From positions 64,001 to 128,000 of the IMG/VR virus record IMGVR_UViG_3300036770_006434: a stretch of DNA of 64,000 nt; one strand, 5' to 3'. This stretch comes from a virus. Made by a program: the position numbers and the translations under genes. The notes beneath the pieces are model-generated. The model was given only the letters and a program-made list of their open reading frames with translations, had not been told where the DNA came from and did no database searches. Each line of letters starts with the position of its first letter. The stretch's first letter is position 1. Of this stretch, positions 37,960 through 61,298 are shown in pieces.

Positions 37960-38709
37960 TTAGATCAGTTTGTGTTCCGCTACGACCTTATCGTAATCCT
38001 CTTGTTTGACCCCGATATGCAGGGCTTCCGCATAGTCCGTTTCCCAGACCAAGTGCCTCTTGTGGGACCGTGAGAAGTGTTGTAGAATCAGCCGCCAGAG
38101 CATCTCACACTGCACCTGTTGGCGGGCCAGCGGGTTTTGTTCCAGCGCCAGACAAAGGCGATAATAATCCAGACTCCGCATAATGATGGGTTGAAAATTG
38201 ACGTGTTCCGACCAGAAGTAGTCAGTCCCGGAGTCCGCAGGGAAGCCCGGCCCTTTGTCGTCGCCCCGCCGCATGAAGCGGGCGGTCAGCATTTCGTGGT
38301 CATTCGCCAGTTTTTGACAAGCAGAAGTCAAGAGGTCGTCCAGCGGGATTTTGTGACTGATTACCGGTGAATCGTCCTCGGCCAGCATAAAATACGGCTG
38401 GCTATAGACTTCCGGGTTTTTGGACACAGTGATTTGGTCACAGAGATAAGCGTCTCCGTGAGACAGTCCGCGATTCCAGTCGCCCATGGTCTCAATCACT
38501 TGGAAACCTCGCGCAGTCAGGTCTTCCCGCATGGACTTGGCGATATCCTCATCCCCCGGTGTCACTTTGAGATGTGCGACAAGACGCCCAAAGACGACAA
38601 GCGGAATCTGTTTGTTCCAGTGATTCAGGGTAAGGCGATAGTCAGTTTTCCGGCCCCAGTGTCCTTTGGTAGACGTGAAGAGTGCGAATGTGATCGGGAG
38701 TTTGTTCAT
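37960..38709 (-). CDS. Hypothetical protein, possibly GT-A fold
   Basis: LAEDDS acidic motif after a beta strand; LHIG near the C-terminus; island context. Confidence 0.45.
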   Translation of the reverse strand: MNKLPITFALFTSTKGHWGRKTDYRLTLNHWNKQIPLVVFGRLVAHLKVTPGDEDIAKSMREDLTARGFQVIETMGDWNRGLSHGDAYLCDQITVSKNPEVYSQPYFMLAEDDSPVISHKIPLDDLLTSACQKLANDHEMLTARFMRRGDDKGPGFPADSGTDYFWSEHVNFQPIIMRSLDYYRLCLALEQNPLARQQVQCEMLWRLILQHFSRSHKRHLVWETDYAEALHIGVKQEDYDKVVAEHKLI

Positions 38710-38719
38710 GTTTTATGTA

Positions 38720-39361
38720 TCACCACTTGCAATACCAAGCCGCGACCCACAGGCGTTTGAGCCACCAATGAATAAGTTCGCCTAATGAGCGCAGTTTCAG
38801 GATGCGGCTATTGGCGGGAAAGGCGATGTCGGGAGAGCATCCCGTCAGAATCGTGCGGATAGGGGAGTTCACCCTCCCGAGGATAATCGTCAAGGGGCGG
38901 TCGGAAACGTGGCTTAGGTGGGAGAGGTCTAAGGAGTGGACGGGCGCAGAGGATTGGTCTGACCACTCGCCCAGCGAAACGTCGGCTTTTGTGCCCGTAG
39001 ATTCAACTTCTCCCTTGAGTGTTAGCTCGTGGCTACCTCCCTTGATCTTGAACACGTATTCGCCCTCGTTACCGGCGACCCCAAAGCGTCCCTCAAGGCA
39101 GCAGTAGCACGTAGTGTTGTTGCAATCCACGGCGGCTTCCTTGCCTTGGGCGACCCTGAGATTGGGAAGGTCTGTATAGGTGCGACCGGAGAGTTTCAGG
39201 ATCGCGTCCCATGCCTTGGGGTCGGTCGGAACGAGGTCGTTCATCGGAGCGCCGGGCTCAGCCGGGGTTTCCCGGTCTGTGCCGGCGAACCAGATGATGC
39301 TGTCCACGTTATAGGACAGGTAGTTGGCGTCTTTCTCGGCGGTGCGGATGGGGGTGATCAT
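38720..39361 (-). CDS. Hypothetical protein (213 aa), beta-rich
   Basis: ATGA overlap with the upstream gene. Start at MITPI (39361). Confidence 0.6.
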   Translation of the reverse strand: MITPIRTAEKDANYLSYNVDSIIWFAGTDRETPAEPGAPMNDLVPTDPKAWDAILKLSGRTYTDLPNLRVAQGKEAAVDCNNTTCYCCLEGRFGVAGNEGEYVFKIKGGSHELTLKGEVESTGTKADVSLGEWSDQSSAPVHSLDLSHLSHVSDRPLTIILGRVNSPIRTILTGCSPDIAFPANSRILKLRSLGELIHWWLKRLWVAAWYCKW

Positions 39362-40068
39362 GAGGTATAGGAGATTACAGGATAACTGGTGCGATAACGG
39401 GGGTCGGTGGACTGCCAACGCAGACAGTGCATGCGTAGAGTCTCGCGCAGTCGGGACATCTCCTCGGGGGTGGACACGATGGTGTTGACGGTCATGCGTG
39501 GACCCGAAGTATTCCCGTAGCCCATCAGTGCGGCAGCGGGGCTAATCCACTGGATGTCCGGCGACGCGGGATCGCAAATACGCGAGCCCTTCTGCGGCTG
39601 GTCACAATGAACGCCCCAGTCATAAAGCATCTGCCAGTTAGGTAACCATGGACGCGTCCGATCATTGGTTACCCAATCGCCGCCAATGCTGTGACTAGGA
39701 GAGGTTTCCCCTTCTCTTTCCAAAAGGTCCGCTAAAATGTAGGCCGGATTAGAGCAGCCGCGCTCTAACTTGAAGGTGCCGTCCCAGTCGCCAAAATACC
39801 GGTATGAGGCGTTTATGCCCGGATGATATCCGTCGCGCGCGATAGCGTCACAATCCTCAACGTAATAGCGATTTGACGGGACCTTGACAGCTAAGCCTTT
39901 GACCAGAACGCCTGTCGGTCCGGGTAGTCCAACGTCCTTAAAATCGGCTATGGGGTCGGACGTGGGCGGGGTCTGATTCACTGCCCTAGCTACCAGCGGT
40001 GCGGCAGCTAAGCTACCGAGTATAGATATGAACTGACGACGTGTAGTGGACGCGATAAGTGTGCTCAT
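39358..40068 (-). CDS. Tat-signal protein carrying a TipJ (lambda gpJ)-like segment
   Basis: TTRRQFISILGSLAAAPLVARA signal; VKVPSN...GDWDGTFK...SNPAYILADLL...LYDWGVHCDQ...PRMTVN. Confidence 0.75.
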   Translation of the reverse strand: MSTLIASTTRRQFISILGSLAAAPLVARAVNQTPPTSDPIADFKDVGLPGPTGVLVKGLAVKVPSNRYYVEDCDAIARDGYHPGINASYRYFGDWDGTFKLERGCSNPAYILADLLEREGETSPSHSIGGDWVTNDRTRPWLPNWQMLYDWGVHCDQPQKGSRICDPASPDIQWISPAAALMGYGNTSGPRMTVNTIVSTPEEMSRLRETLRMHCLRWQSTDPRYRTSYPVISYTS

Positions 40069-40361
40069 GCAATAACCTCTTTCCATGTGGCAAAATAATT
40101 TTCACCCTTCATTTCCAACCAGTAATCTGTGATAAACGTTTCGGGGTTAAAGGAATTGTTCTGTTTTACGTCAAGTCGCACAGTGCCGCGCCCTAAGTTA
40201 AGGTTCGGAAACCCCTTCTCTGCCGCCGAAGCGGCTGCCTCAATGCAAAATTCGTCAATCTCCCCGGTGGAACGTCGGAACTGGCCTCTCCAACTTCCAT
40301 TGTCTTTGACCTCGTAAGTCTCTGTCAATTGGGATGTATATGTTCGTGATACAGCATTCAT
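40065..40361 (-). CDS. Hypothetical protein (98 aa)
   Basis: ATGA overlaps on both sides. Confidence 0.6.
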   Translation of the reverse strand: MNAVSRTYTSQLTETYEVKDNGSWRGQFRRSTGEIDEFCIEAAASAAEKGFPNLNLGRGTVRLDVKQNNSFNPETFITDYWLEMKGENYFATWKEVIA

Positions 40362-41230
40362 ATAATGGGTAAAGCATCGGCGGGGTTATGGTTGTCCTTG
40401 ATTCCATCGGTCCGACCGTGGAACAGGTGATAGGCATCCGACAGAATCTTCTCTCCCCCGAGGTAAGCCTTCAGGGTGTCGTCCAAAGGACCGGTGAGCA
40501 AGGTCTTGAGCCCCTCCACAGTGAGCGGCACCCCACGGCGCTTCATCTCCTTGCGGAACGCCAAGCGCATTCCCTCCCGGCGCGCAAAAACCTCTTGGGT
40601 GGCACCTCCGGGATGCTGCTCCAAACCGAGCGCACAGGTGTTGGAGCCTGCCGCTTGCGTGACATAGTAATACGCGTAGTGGAGCACAAAATGAAACGGG
40701 TCCTTTCGCTTCTCGGGTCGCACATTCAGCCGCACCAGTCTCTCATTCGGCTCAATGTTTGACCACTCAATTCCGCGTCCATTCCAGCCCGTCAAAGTCC
40801 AATGCGGAGTTTGGCGGTATTCAAGCGTTTCCCGGTAACGGAACAGGTAGGCTTTTCCGTAGTAAAAAACGACATCCAACTCCGCCTCATCCATCATGGG
40901 AATGATCTCTGTTTTGACCTTGGACAAAAACTCTACTGCGGGTCTCTCTTTATCGTCTGTCCAGATACAAAAATCTCCTTCCTGTATGAGTCCGGTGAAT
41001 AGCGTATCGTTCATAGCGTGCCAGTGCCGTGTCGGCCAAGAGCGATGAATAATGCGACCAGCCCCTTTGACGGTTTCCAGATACCGGGCGCTGGGCGCGT
41101 CTGTCGGCACGTCGTTGAGGACCCAGATGATACCGTCAAGGTGGGGTAGGATAGGTTCGATCATCTCTACCGGGTTTTCGGCAGAGGCGTCGGAGGACAT
41201 GGAGGTGAGAAAGAGGCGTGGTGCGCTCAT
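40358..41230 (-). CDS. Putative GT-A glycosyltransferase
   Basis: IWTDDKER DxD-like site. Start at MSAPR (41230), ATGA overlap. Confidence 0.5.
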   Translation of the reverse strand: MSAPRLFLTSMSSDASAENPVEMIEPILPHLDGIIWVLNDVPTDAPSARYLETVKGAGRIIHRSWPTRHWHAMNDTLFTGLIQEGDFCIWTDDKERPAVEFLSKVKTEIIPMMDEAELDVVFYYGKAYLFRYRETLEYRQTPHWTLTGWNGRGIEWSNIEPNERLVRLNVRPEKRKDPFHFVLHYAYYYVTQAAGSNTCALGLEQHPGGATQEVFARREGMRLAFRKEMKRRGVPLTVEGLKTLLTGPLDDTLKAYLGGEKILSDAYHLFHGRTDGIKDNHNPADALPII

Positions 41231-41418
41231 TTGGTCTTCTTGGGGGTCAAATACTCTACCTGCATGGGTGCAAATACGGAGAGGCACGGGAACATGATAC
41301 CACCCGAGTGAGGTGGACAACAGTGCTTACCGCTCTTGTTGACGTAGGGGGCCTCCCTACCGTGGGTGTTGCACCACCATATACCATCCGGCTCTTGATA
41401 CTTGGATAGCGTGGTCAT
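41227..41418 (-). CDS. Small Cys/His-rich hypothetical protein (63 aa)
   Basis: WWCNTH...HCC...MFPC. Start at MTTLS (41418). Confidence 0.55.
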   Translation of the reverse strand: MTTLSKYQEPDGIWWCNTHGREAPYVNKSGKHCCPPHSGGIMFPCLSVFAPMQVEYLTPKKTK

Positions 41419-41420
41419 AT

Positions 41421-41510
41421 CAAGCAATAGGCAACCCATGCTTCATCACCAGATTCTCCGAGGATGGGTCCGAGGACATTGACGTAAGAAAAAGTCGTGG
41501 TTCTGGCATA
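41421..41510 (-). pseudogene. 29-codon mini-ORF duplicating the N-terminus of gene 40358-41230
   Basis: Manual translation MPEPRLFLTSMSSDPSSENLVMKHGLPIA*, versus MSAPRLFLTSMSSDASAENPV of the downstream gene. Confidence 0.75.
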
Positions 41511-41548
41511 TTTCCCCTAGTCTCTAAGTTTTACGTCCAGAGTCAAGT

Positions 41549-42379
41549 CTATTCCCGCCAAGACGGCAGGTTATGCCTGTATTTCGGCATGGCCAGCAAA
41601 TCTTCCATCGTCTTCGCGGCTTCCGAAGAATGCTTGTCGCGGTTATCCCAGACCGGCCGCCAGAACTCGGAGCGTTTAAGCCTCTGTTCCAGATTGAGAT
41701 ATCCGAGATGGTAGACAAAGGGGATTTCTCCACCCTCCATTTGGCCGACCAGCAAAAAAGACGGCAGAGCGGTGTTCATGATGGCGGCGGCGTTGACCAA
41801 TTCTCGGGTCTCTTTGTGAATCGCATCACAGGTGTCGCTTTTCGTCTTGTCGATGGACCCATCCTCTCGGTAAGCCCACTTCACTACTCCTCGGGTGATG
41901 TGCGGCAGATTCTTGTGGAGATACCATTTTAGACCGGTCTTGGCGTATCTGTCCTCTCTTTCAATCAGGTCAACGACAGGAATCAGAAATGCTTCATACT
42001 GACTGTGTTCCAGTTCTTGCGCCAGACGCTCCCAAAACCGACGCTGGCGTGGGATCAGGACTTCATCCAAGTCCAAGAGGATGCAGAATTTCTCCGTGCA
42101 TTTCTCCAAGGCAGCGGCCTTCCCTCGACCATCAAATTCCGGGTCAGTGTAGGGGATATCAATGTCTACCACCTCGGTCTTAGTCTGGCTCCACGGGTTC
42201 TGGAACTTCCACTGCTTAAAGAAATCCCGCAGGACCTTCGCGGTGTCGTCCTCAGATTTGTTCACGGCGATCACGATTTGGCCGGACCCGCGCAGGAAGG
42301 ATAGCCAGTTTGTAAGGACAGGCTTCCAATCGAAACCAGCGGAAATAATGTTAAAGGAGCTGTTGTAAATGCTGAACAT
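41549..42379 (-). CDS. GT2-like glycosyltransferase
   Basis: AALEKCT...LLDLDEV; YHLGY. Confidence 0.7.
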   Translation of the reverse strand: MFSIYNSSFNIISAGFDWKPVLTNWLSFLRGSGQIVIAVNKSEDDTAKVLRDFFKQWKFQNPWSQTKTEVVDIDIPYTDPEFDGRGKAAALEKCTEKFCILLDLDEVLIPRQRRFWERLAQELEHSQYEAFLIPVVDLIEREDRYAKTGLKWYLHKNLPHITRGVVKWAYREDGSIDKTKSDTCDAIHKETRELVNAAAIMNTALPSFLLVGQMEGGEIPFVYHLGYLNLEQRLKRSEFWRPVWDNRDKHSSEAAKTMEDLLAMPKYRHNLPSWRE

Positions 42380-42387
42380 AGAATGAT

Positions 42388-42720
42388 TTATACGTTGTAA
42401 TCCGACAGTTTGTCGTATTCTTTCTTGGCGGGCAACAATTCTATGAGTCTCTTGATACGGTTATACTCCGCTTCACTCAAACTCCAACCCCAACTTCTAC
42501 GCTCAATCCACCCGCTAAAAGGAGGGGTTTCGCGAGGGTCTCGTTGACAAATGTTCTCTAAAAACCCACCGAAAATCTCAATCGGAACGTCCGTGACCAC
42601 GCCTTGCGGCCAAGTGTCCGATTTTTTCTCGTCCACCTCATCTTTGTGCGGAATAGCGATAAGGGCGGAAAACCATTGGGTCCCGGTATCTGTCACAAGG
42701 TAATGGCGTGTTTTGGACAT
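42388..42720 (-). CDS. Hypothetical protein (110 aa)
   Basis: ATG start, in operon. Confidence 0.6.
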   Translation of the reverse strand: MSKTRHYLVTDTGTQWFSALIAIPHKDEVDEKKSDTWPQGVVTDVPIEIFGGFLENICQRDPRETPPFSGWIERRSWGWSLSEAEYNRIKRLIELLPAKKEYDKLSDYNV

Positions 42721-42726
42721 GGCGTT

Positions 42727-43554
42727 TTAGTTCCAGACGTGGAATGAATCTTTTTTTTCGTTTTCAGGAATCTCGCCCGGCGGCCAAGATTGGGTGCCGA
42801 GAACGTATTCCCACTCCCTGTCCGAGAACTTGGGGTAAACGTATCTCTCTTTGACCGGCCCATTAATCAACCAGAGTTGTTTGGTATCCGGGTAATGCAT
42901 CCATTTTGATCCATCCGGGTTCTCACGAACCGCTGTTCGCCCGTTGTCTACGACCATTCGCGGCCATGCCGTGAAATGAAGGTAGTCGTAATCCGAGTAG
43001 TATTTCTGAATCTGTTCTTCCCGCCAAATGACATGGTGGAACGGTCCCGCGCCCCCGTAAGTCAGCGGCAGGTTGTGTTCCATCTTCCTATAAAAATCGG
43101 TCCGCATAATATATGCCCTCTCCGAATAGATATGACGCTCTTCCTGAGTGTCGCAGACCGGCCCGGCTAGGCTGATGGACTTTACCACATATCCATCGCG
43201 GTCCATCTGATCCAACAGGTCCTTTAGGTCTTCAAACTCGTTTTGCCCCAAATCGCGGCCAAAGAACTGGTCATTCTGCAAGTAAATGACGAATGGACTG
43301 AAGACTGCCGCCATAAGGTCGCGCGTGCCAAGCCCGAGGCCACCATTGGTTCGGGGCATGATAAGGGTGTCGATCAGCCCCTCTTTCAGGTAGATTGTCG
43401 GGTAATCTGCCATCCCGTTGTGGAGATACACGACTTTGGTCGGAATCTTGACATGCTTCTTTATGGATTCGAGGCATGGTCTAGCGGCTTCCGGTTTTTG
43501 GAAGTCCAATACGGCGATGGTCAGTTCGGGTTCGGTGTAAGTGGGGAGATTCAT
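42727..43554 (-). CDS. GT2-like glycosyltransferase
   Basis: LTIAVLDF...CLESI...NGGLG...LQNDQ. Start at MNLPT (43554). Confidence 0.7.
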   Translation of the reverse strand: MNLPTYTEPELTIAVLDFQKPEAARPCLESIKKHVKIPTKVVYLHNGMADYPTIYLKEGLIDTLIMPRTNGGLGLGTRDLMAAVFSPFVIYLQNDQFFGRDLGQNEFEDLKDLLDQMDRDGYVVKSISLAGPVCDTQEERHIYSERAYIMRTDFYRKMEHNLPLTYGGAGPFHHVIWREEQIQKYYSDYDYLHFTAWPRMVVDNGRTAVRENPDGSKWMHYPDTKQLWLINGPVKERYVYPKFSDREWEYVLGTQSWPPGEIPENEKKDSFHVWN

Positions 43555-43558
43555 GTTT

Positions 43559-43780
43559 TTAGGTCCAGATTTCCATTTTGGGCGTTCCACGCCAGAGCGG
43601 TTCCCGATATTCAAGGGTCGCATAGTCTGGAACGTCCATCCAACAGCACGAGCATACTGGATGATCTACATGTGACTGCATCCATTTGCCGCCATACGCG
43701 CGGCGATACCAAGAGTATTCAGACATAAAGGCTGAAACGATGGTTGACCTAAAAACGGATTTTGAAAGTTTGATAATCAT
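43559..43780 (-). CDS. Hypothetical protein (73 aa)
   Basis: ATGA overlap upstream. Confidence 0.5.
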   Translation of the reverse strand: MIIKLSKSVFRSTIVSAFMSEYSWYRRAYGGKWMQSHVDHPVCSCCWMDVPDYATLEYREPLWRGTPKMEIWT

Positions 43781-44688
43781 GTGATACTGTTGTAAACCGA
43801 TTCAATCCTGCGGGCCACCCCGGCAGGTGACACCTTCTCTTTGAGGTTCAGGTTAAAATGGGATCGCAGCCGCAGCTTCATCTCCCTCATCCTGTCCCCG
43901 GACTCCTCGTTTACGAAATGCGAGATAAAGGCGGCGATTGACCGGGGGGTCGGATGGACATCCTCGTATTCAGGGAATAGGTCGGTGGGGAAGAGTTCCT
44001 CGCGAGTGGTCAGATCGTTACAGATAATGGGAATAGCGCCCGCCGCCGCGCTCTCCAACGGCGTCAATGAAAGTCCTTCAATTTTTCCCAAGCAGAAAAC
44101 GAAGTCCACCGAGTTATACACGATATTCAGGTTCTCGTCATTCAGAACCCCAAGATAGTCACCCCAACCGGGCTCGTTCCCGACAAGGCATAGGTCATTT
44201 TGCGTATACCCAAGGGTGTTGAGTGCCAGAGCGCCGAGGTTAAACCGTTTATTGGCATCCTGCCGGCGGCCCACATGGGCGAAGCGGTAGAACGGCTTGC
44301 GCGTCAAGTCCGGTCTGTGGGCGGCGGGCTTGATGGGCTGGTAGATAACCGTGGACTCAATCCCCAGATACTCTTTCAGCTGCCATTGCCCATACTCGGA
44401 AATGGCGCAAACCGCATCGGCGGCGACCAGTTGATCCCTAAGTCCACCCATATCGAAATTCGGCAAAAGGTGTATCGGGACATCCAAGCAGGTCAAAATC
44501 ACCTTGGCTCCCGGCTTAATCGTGCCATTGGACTTGTCTTTGACCACCTGTTCGTGCGAATTGTTGGAATACACCAAGTCCGCTTCGGTGATATACTCCG
44601 TTACCTCCCACCCGATTTCACGGAATCCATCCGCGATTCGCGGCACTTGCCCGGCAAAGTGAGTCGCGCCGTTTAGCCAGACCTTCAT
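43777..44688 (-). CDS. GT4 (GT-B) glycosyltransferase
   Basis: AISEYG; HVGRRQDANKR; EGLSLTPLESAAAG (EX7E). Confidence 0.85.
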   Translation of the reverse strand: MKVWLNGATHFAGQVPRIADGFREIGWEVTEYITEADLVYSNNSHEQVVKDKSNGTIKPGAKVILTCLDVPIHLLPNFDMGGLRDQLVAADAVCAISEYGQWQLKEYLGIESTVIYQPIKPAAHRPDLTRKPFYRFAHVGRRQDANKRFNLGALALNTLGYTQNDLCLVGNEPGWGDYLGVLNDENLNIVYNSVDFVFCLGKIEGLSLTPLESAAAGAIPIICNDLTTREELFPTDLFPEYEDVHPTPRSIAAFISHFVNEESGDRMREMKLRLRSHFNLNLKEKVSPAGVARRIESVYNSIT

Positions 44689-44951
44689 GCCTCGTCCTCT
44701 TTTTCCGCAATGGACAGGTATTCGTCCTGCGGCACTAGCTCGGACAGGATTTGGGAATCCACCCCGCCGTTAGTCCCCAAATACCCGCGAAGTGCAGCCA
44801 GAGCCGTGTCCAAATCGTCAAAAGTGCCGACCGGCGCACCGTCCACCCCGACATACCAGATGCGGACATACTCGTTGTCAGTGGGTTTTCCTGTTTTTTC
44901 CTTGAAGGCCGCTGCCGAGGAAGCGGGGGACGTGTGTTTGGAGTGAGACAT
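44685..44951 (-). CDS. Hypothetical protein (88 aa), first gene of the leftward arm
   Basis: Start at MSHSK (44951). The longer ORF-track extension runs through the promoter and is probably spurious. Confidence 0.6.
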   Translation of the reverse strand: MSHSKHTSPASSAAAFKEKTGKPTDNEYVRIWYVGVDGAPVGTFDDLDTALAALRGYLGTNGGVDSQILSELVPQDEYLSIAEKEDEA

Positions 44952-44986
44952 GGGATTTATGCGATATTGAATGGCGGCAGTTTCCA

Positions 44987-45014
44987 ATGATAAGGATACT
45001 GGTAAGTGAGTCAA
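44987..45014 (-). promoter_or_regulatory. Sigma70-like promoter TTGACT-N16-TATCAT (leftward)
   Basis: 35 nt upstream of the ATG at 44951. Confidence 0.75.
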
Positions 45015-45242
45015 GTCAAAAAGGTAAACCAGTATCAAGAGATAGATTCTAACGTAAACAACCACAACTACCACACAGTTCCACTTCCCCCAGTTCACCC
45101 TAATATATGTCCTGTTCTTTTTTGTTGGGCCAAAACCTGTGTTACGGAAATGTGTCGTAAATCGGACAGTTTGAACGGCCAAACTGTTTGTGGGCTAAAC
45201 CATTGACGATAGATGAGTTATGAAAATAATGCGACTTTATGC

Positions 45243-48332: not shown

Positions 48333-49052
48333 ATGCCATTTGATCTTTGCGCCATTGCCGGAGTCACATACGAAGACCAGTCTCTTCTCAAAACCGTCCG
48401 AAAGGAAGCTGACAAAAAGTTCTCGAAAGACTCTTATACCAAAAACCTCTGGGTCCTTCGCGAATACAAGAAGCGCGGCGGCAAGGTGAAGTATGAGGGG
48501 CGGAAACCGGCACGAAAGGAAATCAAGAAGCAAGTAACCGCTTCCATTGATTTCGAGATGGAGGCCGTTCGTCTAAGCATTCCCGCCGAAATCGAAGCCG
48601 CCAACGCTTCGGCAGACTCGGATATCCGCGATTTGGTGGAAGACCTTCAGACTTACGCCTATTGTGTGGAGGCTGATGAGGATGATACGGACGGATTCAT
48701 GCAGGACTTTGTGGAAGAGGCGGCGAAAAAGAAGAAGAATGTGAAGCTGAACAAACCGTTCCGCACTCCGGGTGGCCCGAAGAAATTCGCGGTATACGTG
48801 AAGAATGAGAAGGGCAATATCGTGATGGTTAGGTTTGGCGATCCTTCGTCCGAGATAAAGCGCGATGACCCCGAACGGCGTAAGAATTTCCGCGCTCGTC
48901 ATAACTGTGATAATCCCGGCCCAAAAACGAGGGCCAAATTCTGGTCTTGCCGGCTGTGGGCTCGTAAGCCCGTTTCCGACATCGTCGGCAGCGAAAACGA
49001 AAGTGCATTGAAAGAGATTTTTGGCGAAGTAGAGGTAGAAGAGTCAGAATGA
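48333..49052 (+). CDS. Conserved phage hypothetical protein
   Basis: NLWVLREYKKRGGK and KLNKPFRTPGGPKKFAVYVK...RFGD...RRKNFRARHNC...FWSCRLW segments, recalled as widespread in aquatic phages. Confidence 0.6.
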   Translation: MPFDLCAIAGVTYEDQSLLKTVRKEADKKFSKDSYTKNLWVLREYKKRGGKVKYEGRKPARKEIKKQVTASIDFEMEAVRLSIPAEIEAANASADSDIRDLVEDLQTYAYCVEADEDDTDGFMQDFVEEAAKKKKNVKLNKPFRTPGGPKKFAVYVKNEKGNIVMVRFGDPSSEIKRDDPERRKNFRARHNCDNPGPKTRAKFWSCRLWARKPVSDIVGSENESALKEIFGEVEVEESE

Positions 49053-49837
49053 AGTATTACGTATACGTTATTTTAGACCCATTTACGGGTCCATATGATT
49101 GTTTTGAACACCATCCTATCTACATCGGAAAGGGAACTGGAAACCGTTGCGAAATGCACCTAAAACTCGGATTTGAAGAAGACTCAAACAGGGTAAAAAG
49201 TTCTAGAATAAAGAAAATAATGTCAAAAGGTAAAAAACCTGTGATTTTGAAGGTTTTTCATACGGATGACGAGACCGAAGCATACGAACACGAGGAGTCT
49301 TTGATAGCAAAATATGGAGTTTTTGGTGATGGTATTTTGACAAATCTAACCCCAAGTTGTAGACCACCAAGCAGAAAAGGCGCGATTATATCACAGGAAC
49401 AAAGAGATATTGTTGGAAAAGCCGCCAGAAAAAGACTTTTAGGTAAGACATATGAAGAATTATACGGAGACCGTGCCGAAGAAGTAAAAAAGAAGATTGG
49501 GGCCGCAACCAGAAGACGGGCAAAAGACATTAAAACGGAAACTCGCGAAAAACTGAGCAAATCAAACGTTAGATCATACGTGGAAATATATGGATCAGTA
49601 GAAGAGGCGGAAAGACATAAAAAAATACGATCAGAAGCAAGAAAAGGGAAGAAAAGAACTCCAGAGCAAAGAGCGAGAATGGCAGAGTTAAATAGAAAAA
49701 CAAGAGAAAAATTTGGAAACGACAAAAGCAAAACTTGGAATGGAGTTAGGTATAATACTACCAAAGAAGCAATAAAAGCGTCAGGTCTTTCCTCGGGAAG
49801 ATTTTACAAATTCTTACATAGCACACAAACGAATTAA
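49049..49837 (+). CDS. GIY-YIG homing endonuclease with NUMOD3-like repeats
   Basis: YYVYVILDP...IYIGKGTGNR...EESLIAKYG...LTNL; basic helical repeats. AT-rich. Confidence 0.85.
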   Translation: MKYYVYVILDPFTGPYDCFEHHPIYIGKGTGNRCEMHLKLGFEEDSNRVKSSRIKKIMSKGKKPVILKVFHTDDETEAYEHEESLIAKYGVFGDGILTNLTPSCRPPSRKGAIISQEQRDIVGKAARKRLLGKTYEELYGDRAEEVKKKIGAATRRRAKDIKTETREKLSKSNVRSYVEIYGSVEEAERHKKIRSEARKGKKRTPEQRARMAELNRKTREKFGNDKSKTWNGVRYNTTKEAIKASGLSSGRFYKFLHSTQTN

Positions 49838-54700: not shown

Positions 54701-54841
54701 TCCGAAGGAAAGGTCTATCTGTCAAAGGCTCACTGGAAACTCGGCAAACACGCCGACAGCACAGAAAAAAATACCGATGACGTGATAGATTCTCCGGATT
54801 TCTGGGAAGAGTTTTCACACTTCTACATATACCAAAAATGA
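51710..54841 (+). CDS. 1043-aa multidomain glycosyltransferase (GT4, Zn ribbon, DUF4214-like, GT9-like, extra C-terminal domain)
   Basis: NQLRKE and SGGLEFE (GT4); CKNC...CPYC; LYNNIL..PDPDGLKHW; GGDLF...LIGNDSMWAH (GT9). Confidence 0.75.
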   Translation: MSRKKKIVLSTNPPWLHTGLAENGRFLAQWLYKTGKYDLSYYCSQSSVADPNHGRQPWKSRGCIPNDPNIIQQLNQDQNRARMASYGGLLIGQVVKEEQPDILWCSDDAWAFPGNEFFNAPWWNKINPILHITVDSLPILEQAYDQAKVTPNFFTWAKFGSTEMRKRGPEWAHTKQIYGATNVNNFSPVSANEKAELRRRFGIGQNTLVFGFTFRNQLRKEALSVLRAFQEFTKLHKTVDAKLHLHTSWSETANGWDIPKFIKLFGVNPESVLCTYVCKNCGNWHISPYRGEDQNCPYCGAQKSMVTANINHGVPDEEMKYVYGIRDATVSAFTSGGLEFENVNTLLCGLPLASTNYSCGQDFCEQPFVTPIDWHFRNEAGTSFIKATNDIGSIRKFMEKISAMSLAKRQEIGEIGRDWAKNTFSIESIGPQWEQVFDALPPKDWSSISLTPPRKNETYPIPQIQDDQAWVTALYNNILVCQPDPDGLKHWMSQLKSGITRDAIYQFFLKIAREDNAKLEPPKDFSSLFDANDRKKILFVMKESGGDLFIASALFKGLKALYPGADLYVGCEPKFAEIIAGNPYVHKILSYHPAMEQELVMRNYVDHYYFPAVQTQRQLGYLTRKLTLAQTYAHASGVELDKPWILSTFFPLDHPVEKSILIHAFAGATVNQNGQIHATFPAKIYDHFNDVVQLLKPIAESLGYKLYQIGGPGEPGLKGIESLVGKTSMHQCAYLVKNCALLIGNDSMWAHIRGGEMKPQVHIYGSTSSPHFPHWRDPEKSFLIESHRGGKKPSYAAVETPKTINWITPEEIVNTSLKAIGAERRVTQKSILFGDAYHVAAVELVPNCIVGPQVQMPGPLVVRMDYVSDAKAAEPHLLSNLQIRPCLIITDKELDLNLLRQAKPRITALRVEVDKVSPEWVKQVKKIGIPTAFFSSEQDPEKLAKLRLDYYDTCVFDHFQPPKKEEFEKLAATYLNKSLDAGGIPANLRFATNKFLLSEGKVYLSKAHWKLGKHADSTEKNTDDVIDSPDFWEEFSHFYIYQK
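54645..54672 (+). promoter_or_regulatory. Possible intragenic promoter TTGACG-N16-TAACCT for the next gene
   Basis: Same geometry as the other promoters, 165 nt upstream of 54838. Confidence 0.4.
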
Positions 54842-55821
54842 CCCAACAAACATACTCCGTCGGAAACGAAAACATGCCTGTCACCTTCTGGGGTCCGGCG
54901 TTCGTTGAGGCGAAAGCCAAACCTGAATGGCCGCGCAAACCGGACGGTTCCGTCAATTGGCGCGCTCTTGTCCGCCCCGAACACCTTTATGTTAAACGGG
55001 AGTTCGAGCCGAAGGTAGCGGAAATGCTGGGTAAGAAATCGACCGATATCGCCAACCTCTTGCCAGAGGATATCGCCAAGGTCCCGGACAGGTATCTTGT
55101 CATCCGAAAGGCCGGTATTCTGGAACTGGCGCGACTGCGCGGCTACTCTTCCGCTGTCCCGGATGTTAAACATGCTGCCCGCGATTACGTGGTGGTTCAG
55201 ACTCTTGTCTCTTGGCTTCCGTTTGAGGGGCAGCCCGTAAAGACGAACGGCGGAGTAGGTGAAGCCCACCACGAGAATACCAGCCGACTCGGCGCATTCT
55301 ATCTTGCCGCAATGGCGGAAAACCGAGCCTTCGCCCGAGCCGTCCGCCAGTTCCTTGAAATCGACATCGTTTCCAGCGACGAACTCGGTGCGGGCATCGA
55401 GCCGGAGCAGAACCCGTCCGCTGTCCAGACCGCTACGTCAAACATCAATGACATGTTACCGACCGGCGCCTTGGCCAAAGCGGCGCATGAAGGCGGTTTC
55501 TCCTTTGAGCAGATCAAGAAGGCGGCCCTTTCCCGGTGGCAGGAGGACTCCATCAATGTCGCTAAAGACGCCAACTTCAAGCGCCGAATCGAGAATGACC
55601 CCACCGCTTGGCAGGACTTCAAGGATATCCCGGCCCGCGACTGCATGTCTCTGATTACACTGATCAAGGCCGCGAAAGCCGCGCGGGAGACCAGTAAAAA
55701 AGAAATGGAAGCCGAAAAGGTAAGTCAAACAACTCCGGTTGCCGAAACCGAGTCAGCTACCAAGCGCCGTGGACGACCGCCAAAGACTTCGCCTGCTCCG
55801 CAAGATCAGGCATCTGCATAG
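54838..55821 (+). CDS. Putative Rad52/Sak-like single-strand annealing protein
   Basis: IRKAGILELA...GVGEA...MAENRAFARAVRQFLEI resembles the AETRA..RA.R SSAP pattern. Confidence 0.45.
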   Translation: MTQQTYSVGNENMPVTFWGPAFVEAKAKPEWPRKPDGSVNWRALVRPEHLYVKREFEPKVAEMLGKKSTDIANLLPEDIAKVPDRYLVIRKAGILELARLRGYSSAVPDVKHAARDYVVVQTLVSWLPFEGQPVKTNGGVGEAHHENTSRLGAFYLAAMAENRAFARAVRQFLEIDIVSSDELGAGIEPEQNPSAVQTATSNINDMLPTGALAKAAHEGGFSFEQIKKAALSRWQEDSINVAKDANFKRRIENDPTAWQDFKDIPARDCMSLITLIKAAKAARETSKKEMEAEKVSQTTPVAETESATKRRGRPPKTSPAPQDQASA

Positions 55822-55853
55822 GAACGGTAGGATAAAAGGACAGGAAACCCCAC

Positions 55854-55880
55854 GCCCGAGGCTAAACCCTCGGGCTTTTT
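55854..55880 (+). terminator. Rho-independent terminator
   Basis: GCCCGAGG-ctaaac-CCTCGGGC-TTTTT. Confidence 0.85.
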
Positions 55881-55881
55881 C

Positions 55882-55888
55882 GTGTAAC
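55882..55888 (+). promoter_or_regulatory. GTGTAAC motif opening the structural block
   Basis: Directly after the terminator, 10 nt upstream of the ATG. Confidence 0.6.
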
Positions 55889-55898
55889 CTACTCGGAA

Positions 55899-56351
55899 AT
55901 GTCGTCTCTAATATCCGACTCCGAAAAGGCTTTGCTCCTGACTGATTTTCAGCAGGTCGTGGACACGTTCCTGCGCCCGTTGGTCGTTTATCAGGAAGCG
56001 CAAAGAACAGTGATAGTCTCAAATCCAGATTATAACCCATTTTCCGACTGGAATCAGAACAATACGGACATCCAGAATACGCCGGTTTACACGACCATCA
56101 GCGGGCGAATCCTGTGGGACAAGCAGCAGGAATGGAAGTATGTCCGGCCGCCGGATAGCCCCCAGATCAAAACGAAGGATGCCACCAATCGCTCGGTTCG
56201 CCTCAAGGTGGACCCATCTGGATACAATCTGTTGAAGGACGCGAAAAAGGTAGAGATCGACGGCGTTCTTCTGGATATCGAAAGTCAGGCTAGACCCCAC
56301 GGGCTTTTCGATACCAATTACTACACCTTCTATTTTGTCCGTTCCATGTAA
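55899..56351 (+). CDS. Putative head-tail joining (stopper) protein
   Basis: Size, beta-barrel-like pattern (AKKVEIDGV) and position in the structural block. Confidence 0.5.
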   Translation: MSSLISDSEKALLLTDFQQVVDTFLRPLVVYQEAQRTVIVSNPDYNPFSDWNQNNTDIQNTPVYTTISGRILWDKQQEWKYVRPPDSPQIKTKDATNRSVRLKVDPSGYNLLKDAKKVEIDGVLLDIESQARPHGLFDTNYYTFYFVRSM

Positions 56352-56366
56352 CGGAAAAGGCTCATT

Positions 56367-57029
56367 ATGGCCAAAATGAACATGGCAGCCATAAAGGTGA
56401 CGGTAGCCCAAGATAAGAACGGGGTTATGAAAAAAGCTGCGCAAACCCGTGCGGAACAGGTATTTGAGGACGCTGTAATCGGTATGCAGATGGAGTTTGA
56501 GAATCACTCTGTCACAAAAGAGGTGGCCCAAGGAATTGGAGCCTCGAATATCAGCAAGACGCTTGGCGGCAAAGCGGCACCCAAAAACCTTTACTCATTT
56601 ATCGGGTTTGAGGCCAGTGAAAATGACCAGACGGGACCTATTCGAGACGCTCTTTCGCCAGACGACCCGGCGGGACCCAAGCTGAGGTATGGCGGTAAAG
56701 AAGTGATGTCTAATCAGAATGCCAGATTCAAATTCGAGATATCGGCACCCGACAAGCAGAGAATCTACAAAAACACCCCGATGCCTTGGGCTTCCGGCTG
56801 GAGCTGGGCGCAGAAGATAGAGACAAAAATCCCCGGATTCTCGCGGTTTCTCGCCGAGTTCATGGGCGACCCGTCGCGTTCAGGCGGCGGCGTTCAGATC
56901 AAAGGCCATGACATTAGAAGCGAAGAATACACCCCGCCAGACGAGGGGTATTTAACGACCATATTCCAGAACTTCTTGAACCGTGTCCGCCAGTATAATC
57001 GCGGCGGGTTCAGACGGAGATTCAAATGA
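56367..57029 (+). CDS. Putative neck/tail-completion protein
   Basis: Position between the stopper and the terminator-like genes; basic C-terminus. Confidence 0.4.
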   Translation: MAKMNMAAIKVTVAQDKNGVMKKAAQTRAEQVFEDAVIGMQMEFENHSVTKEVAQGIGASNISKTLGGKAAPKNLYSFIGFEASENDQTGPIRDALSPDDPAGPKLRYGGKEVMSNQNARFKFEISAPDKQRIYKNTPMPWASGWSWAQKIETKIPGFSRFLAEFMGDPSRSGGGVQIKGHDIRSEEYTPPDEGYLTTIFQNFLNRVRQYNRGGFRRRFK

Positions 57030-58162
57030 TAACGACCTCTTTTTCCAAGTCTGCTCTTTTGTCGTTTTTCGCTTGGTTGGACCATCAGCTCCTTCAGGAA
57101 GGACAGATGTATACCAATGCCAATACCCAGCTTTACAAGCAGACGAGCACGGACCCGGTTCTTGGAAACCAGTATACCACCTATTCGTCTCCTTTTCGGT
57201 CTCTGGTCTGGGATCAATCCGTGAGTGGCGCAAATCGGTTTAACGCCATTTCCGGCTACGTTTTCAACTCCTCTCAGTTCACCTCCAGCGGAGGCGACCA
57301 ACTGTATTCAAGCGTCATTTTTCCGCAAATCCCTGCCACCGGATATGGCGGCGCGTCTTTGCAGATGGACCTCAGTTTTCCAGCCTATATAACGGCCCCG
57401 ACCGGGACGGTGATATTGAGCGGAAACAGCGTCTTTTTCCCCGACAACCTGACGCAGACCACGGCAATCCGCTTTTCTGGTGCAAACTCGGGGGATTACT
57501 CGGACCTGATTGTATCCATCACGGGAACGGCCACCGTCATTTCCGGGGGCCAATATGGGATGCAAATGGACTTCCAAAACGGAAGAGTTATTGTCCCGAT
57601 AGACACTTTTCCCGCAACCTCTATTTTTTCAGGCTCTTACGCGATAAAGGACTTCAATCTGTATTTTGCCAATGGCGGCGCTGACCGCATGGTATTTACG
57701 AACAAACCCTATCTGAACAGTAGGTTTAACCGGGCAATGACCGGAATGCCTCCGCCCCATCAAAGAGTGACTCCAGCCATCTTCATCTCCACCCAAACCC
57801 TCAAGAATGAGCCAAAATCGCTGGGTGGCGGCTATATGTATGATACCGAAATAAAGGTAAAACTGGATGTTTGGGCGGAAACAGCGGGACAGCTGGAAAA
57901 CGCTCTATCCCTATTGGTAGACTCAAAAGACCTGTGTTTCCCCGAGATTTCGGAGTCACAGTGGCCGTTGGCCCCTACCGGCGACCTCAAATCTACGCCA
58001 TACAACTACGAAACGCTTTTTGACAGCCTATATACTCCATCAAACCTGTATAGCATCACAAAAGTCAGGTCTTCAAAATACGGGGACTCGGTTCCGATAG
58101 ATCAGTCAATTTTTGGCGGCAAGGTGGAATTAACCCTGCAAAGGACCCGCAGACTCAGGTAG
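57026..58162 (+). CDS. Putative tail terminator/completion protein, paralogue A
   Basis: Collinear similarity to 58185-59051; position upstream of the tube-like genes. Confidence 0.5.
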   Translation: MITTSFSKSALLSFFAWLDHQLLQEGQMYTNANTQLYKQTSTDPVLGNQYTTYSSPFRSLVWDQSVSGANRFNAISGYVFNSSQFTSSGGDQLYSSVIFPQIPATGYGGASLQMDLSFPAYITAPTGTVILSGNSVFFPDNLTQTTAIRFSGANSGDYSDLIVSITGTATVISGGQYGMQMDFQNGRVIVPIDTFPATSIFSGSYAIKDFNLYFANGGADRMVFTNKPYLNSRFNRAMTGMPPPHQRVTPAIFISTQTLKNEPKSLGGGYMYDTEIKVKLDVWAETAGQLENALSLLVDSKDLCFPEISESQWPLAPTGDLKSTPYNYETLFDSLYTPSNLYSITKVRSSKYGDSVPIDQSIFGGKVELTLQRTRRLR

Positions 58163-58168
58163 CTCTCA

Positions 58169-58175
58169 GTGTAAC
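58169..58175 (+). promoter_or_regulatory. GTGTAAC motif
   Basis: Intergenic, 9 nt upstream of the ATG. Confidence 0.5.
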
Positions 58176-58184
58176 TGAAAACGT

Positions 58185-59051
58185 ATGGCGAACACATCAT
58201 TCTCAACGATTACGCTGCTCTCCTTTGCTCAGTGGTTTACAAACAGATTGCAACAGGACGGTCAGGCGTATTTCAACACGACCAGCCGGCTCTACTATCA
58301 GCCGGATACCCGGTTGCCTGCGGGATATATCGCATACTCATCTCCTTTCAGGTCATGGGTTTATGATTCTGGTGTATCTGGCGCTGCGGTTTTGGACAGA
58401 ATCAGCGGCTCTCTAGGAGTCGGTGGGACAGGCTTCGTTTTGCGCGGCCAGTCCGGGCTACAGATAGACTACACAAATGGGCGGGTAATTTTCCCCTCTT
58501 CCGTTGGAACAAATGCCGTAATATCAGGGACTTACGCGGTTTCAGAGTTGAACACTTATTTCGCCAACCAAAGCGCGGAAAAGATGGTGTTTACCAACAA
58601 GTATTACCTGAACAGTCGGTTTAACAGGCCAATTACCGGTATTCCTCCGGCCAACGACATGGTCACGCCCTGCGTTTTTGTAACAAATCTTGGCGGCGAG
58701 AATGAGGGCCGAGCATTTGGCGGCCTCTACAACACCATGATGGATGTAAGACTCATAGTCATGGCTGAGACCATTAACCAACTGGAGGGAACACTATCTT
58801 TGGCTACCGACGCTACCGACGCCAATTTTCCGCAGTTGCCGCCATACCTGTGGCCCCTTGGACCGCTTGGAGATGTAAAATCCGGCTACAACTACCAAAC
58901 CATCAAAGAGGAGTATGGCCAGCCGCGCAACCTGTATACCATAAACGAGGTGACAGCGACAAAGGTCGGTGACAATCTGAAGATAGACGAGTCCGTTTTT
59001 GTCGGCCTGATAGACCTTAAAATAGAGCGGCCTCGTTCGATCCATGGATAA
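58185..59051 (+). CDS. Putative tail terminator/completion protein, paralogue B
   Basis: Shares SFS..LLSF..W, SSPFRS.V.D, MVFTNK.YLNSRFNR, VTP..F and QLE..LSL with paralogue A. Confidence 0.5.
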   Translation: MANTSFSTITLLSFAQWFTNRLQQDGQAYFNTTSRLYYQPDTRLPAGYIAYSSPFRSWVYDSGVSGAAVLDRISGSLGVGGTGFVLRGQSGLQIDYTNGRVIFPSSVGTNAVISGTYAVSELNTYFANQSAEKMVFTNKYYLNSRFNRPITGIPPANDMVTPCVFVTNLGGENEGRAFGGLYNTMMDVRLIVMAETINQLEGTLSLATDATDANFPQLPPYLWPLGPLGDVKSGYNYQTIKEEYGQPRNLYTINEVTATKVGDNLKIDESVFVGLIDLKIERPRSIHG

Positions 59052-59058
59052 TTCACGA

Positions 59059-59083
59059 GAAAACCATCGGGAATACGTGTAAC
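59059..59083 (+). promoter_or_regulatory. GAAA-N14-GTGTAAC motif
   Basis: Intergenic, upstream of 59117. Confidence 0.6.
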
Positions 59084-59116
59084 CAATATCGCCAAACCAC
59101 GGGAAAGGTATAATTT

Positions 59117-60073
59117 ATGCCGCAATATCAGGCAGGTCAAGTTCGACTGGAGTCCGGAGTTCTGTATTCTTCAACGATGCAGCCGGTTCCGCGCGTCTCA
59201 AACGTGAGGATAGACTACAACGTTCCGCGCGCCAATGTTGGTGTATTGAACCGTGGGAAACCTCTTGAAGGCAGGCCGGTAATCAACTATACTCCCGTAG
59301 ACGCATCGGTTGAGTTCTACAAAAGCGACTCTTCCATTGAGCAGATGCTGGGACTGGTCAATGGAACCAGCGTCGTCTCGAATATTACAGAGACAAAGGC
59401 CGCCAATGCTACCTACGGAATCCGTTCCATGCAGGTTGCCTTTGCGCCGACCTCGTCTACCAACTACAACGGTCTTTATGATCTAAAGAGCGGCGTTCTA
59501 ACGAGTTACACCCTTCAGGGCGGAGTCGGCGACCCGGTTCGCGGCTCTTTCGGTCTGCAATTCTTGGATTGCTCTGGCTCCATCAATACAACCACCAGAG
59601 ACTCTTCAAACACTGCCGCAAATCTGGTAAAACCGGAAAACGTCTCTCTTACCGGCATTCAGTTTACCGGTTACGGGCTTACCGGCGTCACCATTCAATC
59701 CTTTTCCTTCAGTCTTGGTTTTGGCCGCGCCTCTGTCCAACAGCTTGGCACAAAATTCCCCACAGAGCGCCCGCTAACCGATGTGAATGCGTCTTTTCAG
59801 TGTCAGGGCTGGTTCGAGGGGATCAATAATTCGGTGACCGGCCTATCGCAATACGATTGCGGTGCGCCATCTGTCGGGGTCGTTGGCCTGACCATGCAGC
59901 CCTCCTGCGGCGGCGGGTCTCCCAGCACGATTACCATGAGGAATCCCTACATTGACAGCTTCTCCATTGATTCTCAAGTCGGAGGCTTTTCAACAGTGGC
60001 AATTTCTCTTTCCCTGCCTATTGGACCGAATCCAAACGAGACGAGCGACGGGTCTGTGGTCATATTCAATTGA
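59117..60073 (+). CDS. Tail-tube-like protein, paralogue A
   Basis: Two internal beta-rich repeats (V..V.IDYNVPR..V.VL / IQSFSFSL.FGR..V..LG). Confidence 0.55.
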   Translation: MPQYQAGQVRLESGVLYSSTMQPVPRVSNVRIDYNVPRANVGVLNRGKPLEGRPVINYTPVDASVEFYKSDSSIEQMLGLVNGTSVVSNITETKAANATYGIRSMQVAFAPTSSTNYNGLYDLKSGVLTSYTLQGGVGDPVRGSFGLQFLDCSGSINTTTRDSSNTAANLVKPENVSLTGIQFTGYGLTGVTIQSFSFSLGFGRASVQQLGTKFPTERPLTDVNASFQCQGWFEGINNSVTGLSQYDCGAPSVGVVGLTMQPSCGGGSPSTITMRNPYIDSFSIDSQVGGFSTVAISLSLPIGPNPNETSDGSVVIFN

Positions 60074-60093
60074 GTTTTCTCAATATTTAGACG

Positions 60094-60118
60094 GAAATCC
60101 ATCCGTTTCTTGTGTAAC
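60094..60118 (+). promoter_or_regulatory. GAAA-N14-GTGTAAC motif
   Basis: Intergenic, upstream of 60162. Confidence 0.6.
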
Positions 60119-60161
60119 CCAAAGAGGGACCAGCATTTCCCGGTAAAACCTTTTACACACC

Positions 60162-61298
60162 ATGCCCGCATCCACTCCTCGCACTCGTCTTATCTTCCAG
60201 AACGTCAACGCGTTTGTCGGCCCTGCGGCCGGTTCTGGAACCACGGCTACTGGCGCTCACTATACCAGCGGCAATGTTCCCATTGGAAATCTTGTCGCTG
60301 AAATCGCCAATGTGACCTCGGCCACGCTGAATGTCGGTATCAACCGACAGGACATCAATGTCTTCGGCGTTCTTAACCGCGTTGATCAGATCATCATCGC
60401 TCCTCCGAGTATTACGATGGACCTGTCTTGGAACGTTACGGACGGTTACAATGAGTCGATTGTTGGTCTCAACGCTCTTGGAGGTTCTTTTATCTCTGGG
60501 CTTTTGACGAAGGTTTCGGATTCAAAGAATTACTTCTTAGCTATTTCGCAACAAGGCATTGATGATGACGGTGTGACCAACCCCAATCAGCGCGACGTTC
60601 TCGCCGTTGGCAATGGGTTTATATCAAATTATACGTTCAATGCCGCGGTCGGTCAAGTTGCTACGGCCTCAATTTCGATTGACGCCATGAACGTTGTGGG
60701 CTACACGGGCGCGAGCGGAAATAACATTCCAGCCATCAACCCTGAAACCAGCAGCCGAGTCACGACTTGGAACTTCCAGCTTCCGACTGCTACTACTATT
60801 ACGGGTGGCAACAACGTTTTCGCCCTTCGCCCCGGTGATATTACGCTTTCTTTCCCGACCAACGCCGGATTCCTTTCGCCACTGAGCGGTCAAAACGCGA
60901 TCAACGTTCAATCGGTCAGCATGTCTGTTCCGATCAGCCGTGTGACGCTTGACCGTTTGAACTCAACTTTTGGATATAGCCGAGAAATTCAGTTCCCGGT
61001 CAACTGTTCGCTGGCGATCCGCGCTCTGGCCACAGAAGTAAACCCGACCTCGTTTGATTCGCTTTACTGCAATGACCAAGCCTATAATTTGACGCTTACC
61101 CAGCGCCAGCCTAGCTGCAACGGAACAGGACTTAACGCTTTGATCATCGGATTTAACGAAGCCAAAATTGCAAGCTGGTCGCAGGGAATTACGGTCGGCG
61201 GAGACAGCACAATTGATATAAATGCGGTAGCACAGATCGCTGGCGCTACAGCTACTGACGGTATCACGTTCTCCGGTTACGGAGCGGTTCGGATTTAA
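60162..61298 (+). CDS. Major tail tube protein (probable), paralogue B
   Basis: Same two-repeat layout (VTSATLNVGINRQDINVFG / VQSVSMSVPISRVTL..L); followed by a strong terminator. Confidence 0.6.
   Translation: MPASTPRTRLIFQNVNAFVGPAAGSGTTATGAHYTSGNVPIGNLVAEIANVTSATLNVGINRQDINVFGVLNRVDQIIIAPPSITMDLSWNVTDGYNESIVGLNALGGSFISGLLTKVSDSKNYFLAISQQGIDDDGVTNPNQRDVLAVGNGFISNYTFNAAVGQVATASISIDAMNVVGYTGASGNNIPAINPETSSRVTTWNFQLPTATTITGGNNVFALRPGDITLSFPTNAGFLSPLSGQNAINVQSVSMSVPISRVTLDRLNSTFGYSREIQFPVNCSLAIRALATEVNPTSFDSLYCNDQAYNLTLTQRQPSCNGTGLNALIIGFNEAKIASWSQGITVGGDSTIDINAVAQIAGATATDGITFSGYGAVRI

Follow-up and report, generated by a model that had tools for sequence, protein, structure and literature searches.

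Within IMG/VR virus record IMGVR_UViG_3300036770_006434, a complete virus genome of 190,671 bp with direct terminal repeats, we studied a stretch of 64,000 nucleotides (bases 64001-128000 of the record; referred to as the window, whose numbering is used unless stated otherwise). The gene of interest lies on its complementary (-) strand at 39358..40068 and specifies a 236 amino acid (aa) protein, P0001. Profile searches and structure modelling show that P0001 belongs to a family encoded by an accessory gene of large (~190-220 kb) lambda-like siphophages, with the predicted architecture of a cleavable twin-arginine translocation (Tat) signal, a short disordered linker and a stand-alone hub core of the tail-tip protein J. 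The gene is laid out as follows:

39358..40068 (-): P0001 gene, an intact open reading frame (ORF) of 236 aa with Tat signal and J-hub core
40076..40081 (-): Shine-Dalgarno sequence AAGAGG, 7 nt before the ATG at 40068, as read from the sequence
39982..40068 (-): predicted Tat signal peptide, residues 1-29, with the RR codons at 40036-40041
39898..39981 (-): variable Pro/Thr-rich linker, residues 30-57, predicted to be disordered (predicted local distance difference test score, pLDDT, 43-57), its alignment columns gapped and poorly conserved
39406..39897 (-): J-hub core, residues 58-221, an alpha/beta fold homologous to approximately residues 240-476 of lambda gpJ
39376..39417 (-): C-terminal motif W-Q-S-T-D-P-R-Y-R-T-S-(W/Y)-P, residues 218-231, nearly invariant and family-specific
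39358-39360 (-): stop codon TGA

The original prediction, a reading of this DNA from its letters alone, held that P0001 contains blocks matching the central part of lambda gpJ. All five blocks are present in the translation (VKVPSN, residues 61-66; YFGDWDGTFK, 91-100; SNPAYILADLL, 106-116; LYDWGVHCDQ, 147-156; PRMTVN, 190-195), and a profile alignment to the solved gpJ chain pairs LQVPSN, YSGIWDGTFK and NNMAWCLWDML with the family blocks. In the full-length J protein which this phage also encodes (the resident J), the counterparts LYKIAQYCDA and PRFTCN are found. PHROG 31, "central tail fiber J", matches residues 55-204 (E 1.1e-8), and the family profile, run against PDB sequences, recovers the T1 tail tip (E 1.7e-5), the J-like gp24 (0.0027) and lambda J (0.02-0.04). 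A Pfam search of P0001 returned neither PF13550 nor any other J domain; PF13550 maps to residues 443-605 of the resident J, mostly after the segment shared with P0001.

An AlphaFold2 model built with the family alignment as input had a mean pLDDT of 80.5, with values of 86-97 over most of residues 60-220. With Foldseek, the top four PDB matches of this model were lambda or T1 tail tips. VIA-align placed residues 58-227 of the model on gpJ 240-476, with Z 9.9, a root-mean-square deviation of 2.8 Å and 29% identity over 111 residues for lambda gpJ chain 8xcg_F, and Z 9.7 for 8k35_A; for the lambda gpJ chains the values ranged over 2.8-2.9 Å, 111-113 residues and 27-29% identity, and T1 and T5 pb3 gave Z 6.8 and 4.5, respectively. 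In an exhaustive search of 48,161 PDB representatives, independent of Foldseek, the top seven were siphophage tail-tip or baseplate hubs (lambda, T1, Ur-lambda, Sf11, T5, JBD30 and Chi), and the first unrelated chain had Z 2.8. The best 22 matches in BFVD are all J-type proteins, and the shape neighbours in the ESM-Atlas are all TipJ/PF13550 clusters; an ESM-Atlas feature search with P0001 gave no usable match. Based upon the PHROG 31, PDB profile, Foldseek, VIA-align, BFVD and ESM-Atlas results the homology put forward in the original prediction is real, and these sequence and model comparisons confirm mature P0001 as a genuine homologue of the central part of the gpJ hub.

Published boundaries indicate which part this is. 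Lambda gpJ carries an Ig-like insertion at residues 72-215, strand beta24 at 477-482 and a beta-sandwich inserted in HDIV at 483-569 (PMC10721106), and its parts are arranged in the order HDII-ins1/ins2, HDII, the N-arm and first HDIV strands, HDIII inside an HDIV loop, and the OB insertion (PMC11101478). From this domain order and these boundaries, gpJ 240-476 would correspond to the HDII/HDIII/N-terminal HDIV core, situated after the N-terminal insertion/Ig domains and ahead of the beta-sandwich insertion.

The hub core is marked by the motifs KVPSNR, Y-x-G-D-W-D-G-T-F, C-S/T-N-P-A-Y, W-G-x-x-C-D and P-R-x-T-V-N. An alignment of 36 homologues contains 22 invariant and 25 nearly invariant columns, with a mean column identity of 36%, and in the first two thirds of the protein most of the invariant positions coincide with J motifs. 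W218, D222, R224, Y225 and S228 do not vary within the C-terminal motif, which takes the place of the gpJ strand running back into the hub; model confidence is lower at this end. The family also has conserved cysteines, C105 being invariant and C155 and C215 at least 90% conserved (window ~39424-39756, -), which are located beside or inside three long helices. C155 sits in a Y-C-D motif common to lambda and the resident J, and C215 is presumably shared by lambda J as well. The three cysteines could form a metal site. In the linker, a motif resembling (G)-I/M-D-P-x-x-P/G-x-D occurs in P0018, P0021, P0030, P0031, P0033, P0036, P0039, P0061 and P0064; it is absent from P0001.

The N-terminus of P0001 reads M-S-T-L-I-A-S-T-T-R-R-Q-F-I, followed by a hydrophobic core rich in Gly, Ser, Ala and Pro and then by A-R-A, so that the signal is laid out as an n-region with T-R-R-Q-F-I, the h-region SILGSLAAAPLV and a c-region with A-R-A. 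The canonical Tat pattern is S/T-R-R-x-F-L. Among the 68 family proteins, 57 possess RR-x-F/L within their first 45 residues, and R10, R11 and F13 are at least 90% conserved in the 36-homologue alignment. Of the 57 RR members, 48 have S or T at position -1, 55 have F at +2 and 53 have L at +3; the h-region is moderately hydrophobic (mean Kyte-Doolittle 1.38), the median signal length is 25, and a crude parse finds an A-[K/R]-A-like site, with a basic residue in the c-region, in at least 25. Eight of the 11 proteins that do not have RR are truncated or mis-started at the N-terminus and the other three carry R-K, R-A-R or R-A-S. The signal and its retention among homologues, on both of which the original prediction depended, are thus borne out by the conservation of the motif. 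Profile matches are faint: the Pfam TAT_signal model gives P0001 12.1 bits (cut-off 22.7) and matches 10 of the 36 members at E <= 1, with a best E of 3.2e-5, and the NCBIfam search of P0001 produced no match. Among the ORFs of the phage genome, P0001 is the only RRxFL protein in which the motif is followed by a hydrophobic stretch.

The three variants, P0048, P0050 and P0060, are full-length and read T-R-K-H-F-L, T-R-A-R-F-L or T-R-A-S-F-L, with the hydrophobic core and an A-x-A site retained. These could represent natural variation of the Tat motif, or the three proteins may have switched to another export route.

We also considered whether P0001 is a lipoprotein. This was rejected because there is no cysteine after the signal.

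Whether the signal is translated depends upon the start codon. The ATG at 40068 is favoured by the ribosome-binding site, by the coupling of the gene to its upstream neighbour through an ATGA overlap and by the N-termini of the homologues; another ATG is possible six codons upstream, at 40086. The public gene model, P0003 (207 aa), begins instead at the GTG of V30 and loses the whole Tat signal, such that automatic annotation would hide this feature. Both adjacent genes overlap that for P0001:

40065..40361 (-): upstream 98-aa ORF, translationally coupled to P0001, its TGA overlapping the P0001 ATG as ATGA at 40065-40068
38720..39361 (-): downstream 213-aa ORF, its ATG (39361) overlapping the P0001 stop codon as ATGA

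Neither ORF has a family match in Pfam or PHROGs. The 98-aa ORF has no homologue in the other loci examined; homologues of the 213-aa ORF are present in the related loci L004 and L008, where they do not adjoin the P0001-like gene. The same-strand run of genes extends over 37960-45182 (-), is joined by four-base ATGA overlaps (320-aa/98-aa, 98-aa/P0001 and P0001/213-aa) and consists mostly of genes with no family match.

In a search of 1.84 billion cluster representatives, 52 proteins (50%-identity clusters) matched at E <= 0.001. Their lengths are mostly 170-275 aa, typically ~200-250, the few shorter ones being fragments, and there is no J-sized protein among them. A word-indexed search gave 42 homologues and, as weak evidence, none of the longer, fused forms that were sought. 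The homologues recovered by these searches are 40-54% identical to P0001, and over the family alignment the identity to it is 36-53%. Elsewhere the family was not encountered: tblastn of P0001 against 50,697 GenBank phage records detected no member, yielding only weak matches inside the J genes of SSU5-like phages (E ~2e-3 to 5e-3); a family-pattern scan of one genome from each of 185,579 prokaryote species found no relative; and 20 kb of the window, compared with GenBank phages by megablast, gave no match. The family is so far known solely from metagenomic phage contigs. Since no homologue was found in prophages of the 185,579 species genomes, the gene appears to be limited to large phages that are probably lytic.

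In each of three near-complete genomes (190, 205 and 219 kb) the small gene is accompanied by exactly one full-length J above the PF13550 cut-off. Identity of the small proteins to these three J proteins is 24-33%, the resident J being no nearer than the others, whereas the J proteins share 48-55% with each other. The capture is thus old, and the gene has been inherited and conserved ever since. A recent duplication of the resident J was rejected at 24-33% identity. Selection was judged by the conservation of motifs and length, since the closest family pairs have 67-75% protein identity and synonymous sites would be saturated. We conclude that this is a new protein family, in which a known virion domain appears in a new architecture and probably in a new compartment.

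The window was compared with seven homologue loci (L003-L009), and the resident tail-tip genes were studied in the region L010. All eight loci resemble phage accessory regions, with many small genes on the same strand. The original prediction placed the gene in a glycan island. It does lie among glycosyltransferase (GT)-like genes in the window, and a syntenic block with 303-, 298-, 276- and 320-aa genes upstream and a 249-aa gene downstream recurs in L004, L006 and L008, the 320-, 298-, 276-, 303- and 249-aa genes having 26-70% identity across these three other phage contigs; the link therefore holds in four of the eight loci only, as the neighbours differ and the block is absent in L003, L005, L007 and L009. 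The GT assignment itself is weak, with Pfam GT2/GT92 and GT1 below their cut-offs and PHROG "glycosyltransferase" matches at 1e-6 and 1.8e-10; aside from these signals Pfam and PHROGs revealed nothing in the flanking ORFs. The island lacks flippase- or polymerase-type proteins with multiple membrane passes and is therefore probably cytoplasmic in action.

A lambda-type tail tip is encoded at 134-143 kb of the genome, in the order M-like, an inserted homing-endonuclease gene, L, K, I and a J of 1634 aa. These genes are 34 kb from the P0001 gene, beyond the window, and the resident J is on the opposite strand. The statement that tail genes lie 16 kb away was not confirmed: the ORFs at 54.8-61.3 kb have no PHROG match and the true J gene is the one 34 kb off. 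Seven consecutive ORFs of 150-378 aa at 54838-61295 (+) gave no PHROG match at E <= 1e-4; they precede by a few kb the presumed tape-measure gene, which begins at 63887 and was assigned by size and position only, and as head or tail genes they would be highly divergent. Because relatives of the L protein come from phages of Pseudomonadota, a diderm host is likely.

Further features were noted in these regions. The M-like distal tail protein (L010:82-831; genome 134082-134834) matches PHROG 14 over residues 138-248 only and has an unexplained N-terminal extension of ~135 aa. Between the M-like and L-like genes is a 308-aa homing/HNH endonuclease (PHROG 314, E 1e-25; L010:840-1763, genome 134840-135766, window coordinate 70840-71766), and a second PHROG 314 homing/HNH endonuclease (E 1e-16) is located at window 49049-49834.

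What might an exported hub core do? In lambda, gpI attaches to the hub domains by beta-sheet augmentation and itself holds the C-terminus of the tape-measure protein (PMC10721106). The HDII/HDIII/HDIV domains constitute the lower trimeric ring of the tail tip, which rotates outward as a rigid body on tip opening (PMC10721106, PMC11101478). Upon opening, gpI and the tape-measure protein exit toward the membrane and periplasm, where the latter forms the periplasmic channel, and the hub remains outside the outer membrane (PMC11101478, PMC12617516). Because the hub stays outside, a mimic residing in the periplasm could meet only the ejected plug and tape-measure partners, and the most economical reading is therefore an entry-blocking periplasmic decoy, which we put forward as possible but short of probable.

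According to this proposal, P0001 would fold in the cytoplasm, cross the inner membrane in folded form through the Tat machinery, provided that the host has one, and be cleaved after A-R-A, the mature protein staying soluble in the periplasm, where it would use its hub-like surfaces to mimic the hub. Once the tail tip of an incoming related phage has opened and its gpI-like plug and tape-measure protein pass the outer membrane, the mimic would bind one of these ejected partners, formation of the trans-periplasmic channel would stop and the superinfecting phage would be excluded. From the conserved signal we infer Tat export and a periplasmic location. Taken overall, a Tat-exported hub mimic which excludes superinfecting phages is the best explanation, held tentatively and with somewhat less than even confidence. 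The fuller scenario, that a clade of large siphophages turned its own hub core into a Tat-exported decoy which captures plug or tape-measure proteins and aborts DNA delivery, is taken as a whole less likely than not. The original prediction had likewise envisaged a structural domain repurposed as a decoy or a blocker of incoming tails. This interpretation is supported in part, by the J homology, the conserved signal and the stand-alone conserved family; the decoy or blocker role is one inference among several.

Several observations weigh against an exclusion role. The RK, R-A-R and R-A-S variants stand where RR would be expected. Since the domain does not resemble the resident J more than other J proteins, nothing connects it with the tail partners of its own phage, and the GT-like cluster in four of eight loci hints at another role. 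Exclusion also matters less in lytic phages than in lysogens, although T4 and T5 do it. A complex prediction for residues 58-236 of P0001 with the phage's gpL-like (L010:1768-2685) and gpI-like (L010:3392-4159) proteins gave a score of 0.07 (mark 0.32), which speaks neither for nor against the proposal. PADLOC models did not match P0001.

Perhaps P0001 is exported to serve the phage's own cycle, by binding a host envelope component (peptidoglycan or an outer- or inner-membrane protein) so as to remodel the envelope, time lysis or mask a receptor, or else by working with the GT-like neighbours. The syntenic GT-like block in the window, L004, L006 and L008, the translational coupling of P0001 on both sides and the nearly invariant polar C-terminal motif, which has no counterpart in J, would all suit such a function. 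Yet L003, L005, L007 and L009 carry the gene without GT-like neighbours, an island with no flippase- or polymerase-like membrane protein probably acts in the cytoplasm, and we know of no envelope-binding activity in these hub domains; we regard this explanation as unlikely. An improbable one is that P0001 serves as a carrier or cofactor protein of the Tat pathway, either holding a metal or iron-sulfur cluster through its conserved cysteines or taking along a signal-less partner such as the product of a coupled neighbour. Tat substrates are often cofactor-bearing or oligomeric, and the conservation of C105, C155 and C215 and the ATGA overlaps with both neighbours fit this idea. However, the position of C155 (Y-C-D) is also occupied in lambda and the resident J, metal binding is not known for any J protein, and as a passenger the 98-aa neighbour is not conserved and the 213-aa one does not adjoin the gene in other loci. 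On the side of a cofactor it may be added that the tail-tip partner gpL carries a 4Fe-4S cluster (PMC10721106).

The remaining alternatives do without export. P0001 might be a cytoplasmic hub mimic that disturbs or regulates the assembly of tail tips; in the manner of Tai systems, it could for example poison the tails of co-infecting phages. Its N-terminal segment would then have some other purpose. The domain is after all part of an assembly protein, interference with tail assembly by mobile elements is documented (PMC11364771), and the database model P0003 begins after the signal. The Shine-Dalgarno sequence and ATGA overlap nevertheless favour the long start, and 57 of the 60 members whose N-termini are complete retain S/T-R-R-x-F-L, h-region and A-x-A, which is hard to explain if the protein is not exported; this alternative is improbable as well. 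That the ORF is a decaying, functionless fragment of a duplicated J gene, a concern already raised in the original prediction, is very improbable. The coverage of ~170 residues of a >1000-aa protein could suggest as much, but the conservation data refute it: 52 clusters at 50% identity contain intact stand-alone ORFs of constant length, the invariant and nearly invariant columns persist, the distance to the three J proteins exceeds that among them, and a signal peptide and a conserved C-terminal motif have been gained.

Tail hubs are assembled in the cytoplasm and, to our knowledge, have not been met as free exported domains; a family combining a conserved hub core with a Tat signal would represent a virion part re-used outside the virion. 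The original prediction knew of no described example, and none of a Tat-exported tail-derived protein was found in the literature searched, coverage of which is incomplete. If P0001 is indeed exported, the phage adds a client of its own to the Tat pathway. If it acts as a decoy, it would be without precedent both as an exclusion factor that descends from a virion structural domain and as a natural phage Tat substrate in such a role. Blocking of entry would furthermore provide a handle on a poorly understood step, in which tape-measure and plug build the lambda-like channel across the periplasm, and possibly a tool for trapping a channel intermediate.

Comparison with characterized systems defines what is particular to P0001. 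T4 Spackle is a soluble periplasmic superinfection-exclusion protein which has been shown experimentally to inhibit the incoming tail lysozyme. As proposed for P0001, it is a soluble periplasmic protein, encoded by a phage and directed against a tail-tip component of the superinfecting phage; we take it to differ in having a Sec-type signal, in being unrelated in sequence and fold and in not being derived from the virion. Other exported or surface proteins that block entry are Ltp of TP-J34 (PMC3952083), Llp of T5 (PMC9586334) and the HXS effector HxsA (PMC13128918), all extracytoplasmic proteins which prevent phages from entering or from delivering their DNA. Of these, Ltp and Llp are lipoproteins (PMC3952083, PMC9586334), Llp blocking the receptor, and HxsA is a bacterial DNA binder matured by a radical S-adenosylmethionine enzyme (PMC13128918); none of the three is a tail-hub homologue, or described in the cited papers as a natural Tat substrate. 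The Tai tail-assembly inhibitors (PMC11364771), likened to P0001 by description only, are also mobile-element proteins aimed at the phage tail, but are cytoplasmic and act on assembly rather than entry. Closest of all in fold and motifs (VPSN, WDGTF, NPA-aromatic, Y/H-C-D and PR-x-T-x-N) are lambda gpJ and its TipJ relatives (PHROG 31; PDB 8IYK, 8K35 and 8XCG; T1, 9L9P; T5 pb3, 7ZHJ). A TipJ protein of ~1000 aa or more comprises the complete hub, FNIII domains, central fibre and receptor-binding domain, is cytoplasmic and signal-less, and is encoded in the tail module after M-L-K-I. P0001, at 236 aa, covers ~170 of these >1000 residues, is devoid of the N-terminal insertion/Ig domains, the remaining hub, the FNIII domains, the fibre and the receptor-binding domain, and is encoded outside the tail module of a phage that retains a separate full-length J; what it has in their place is a predicted export signal and an invariant C-terminal motif of its own.

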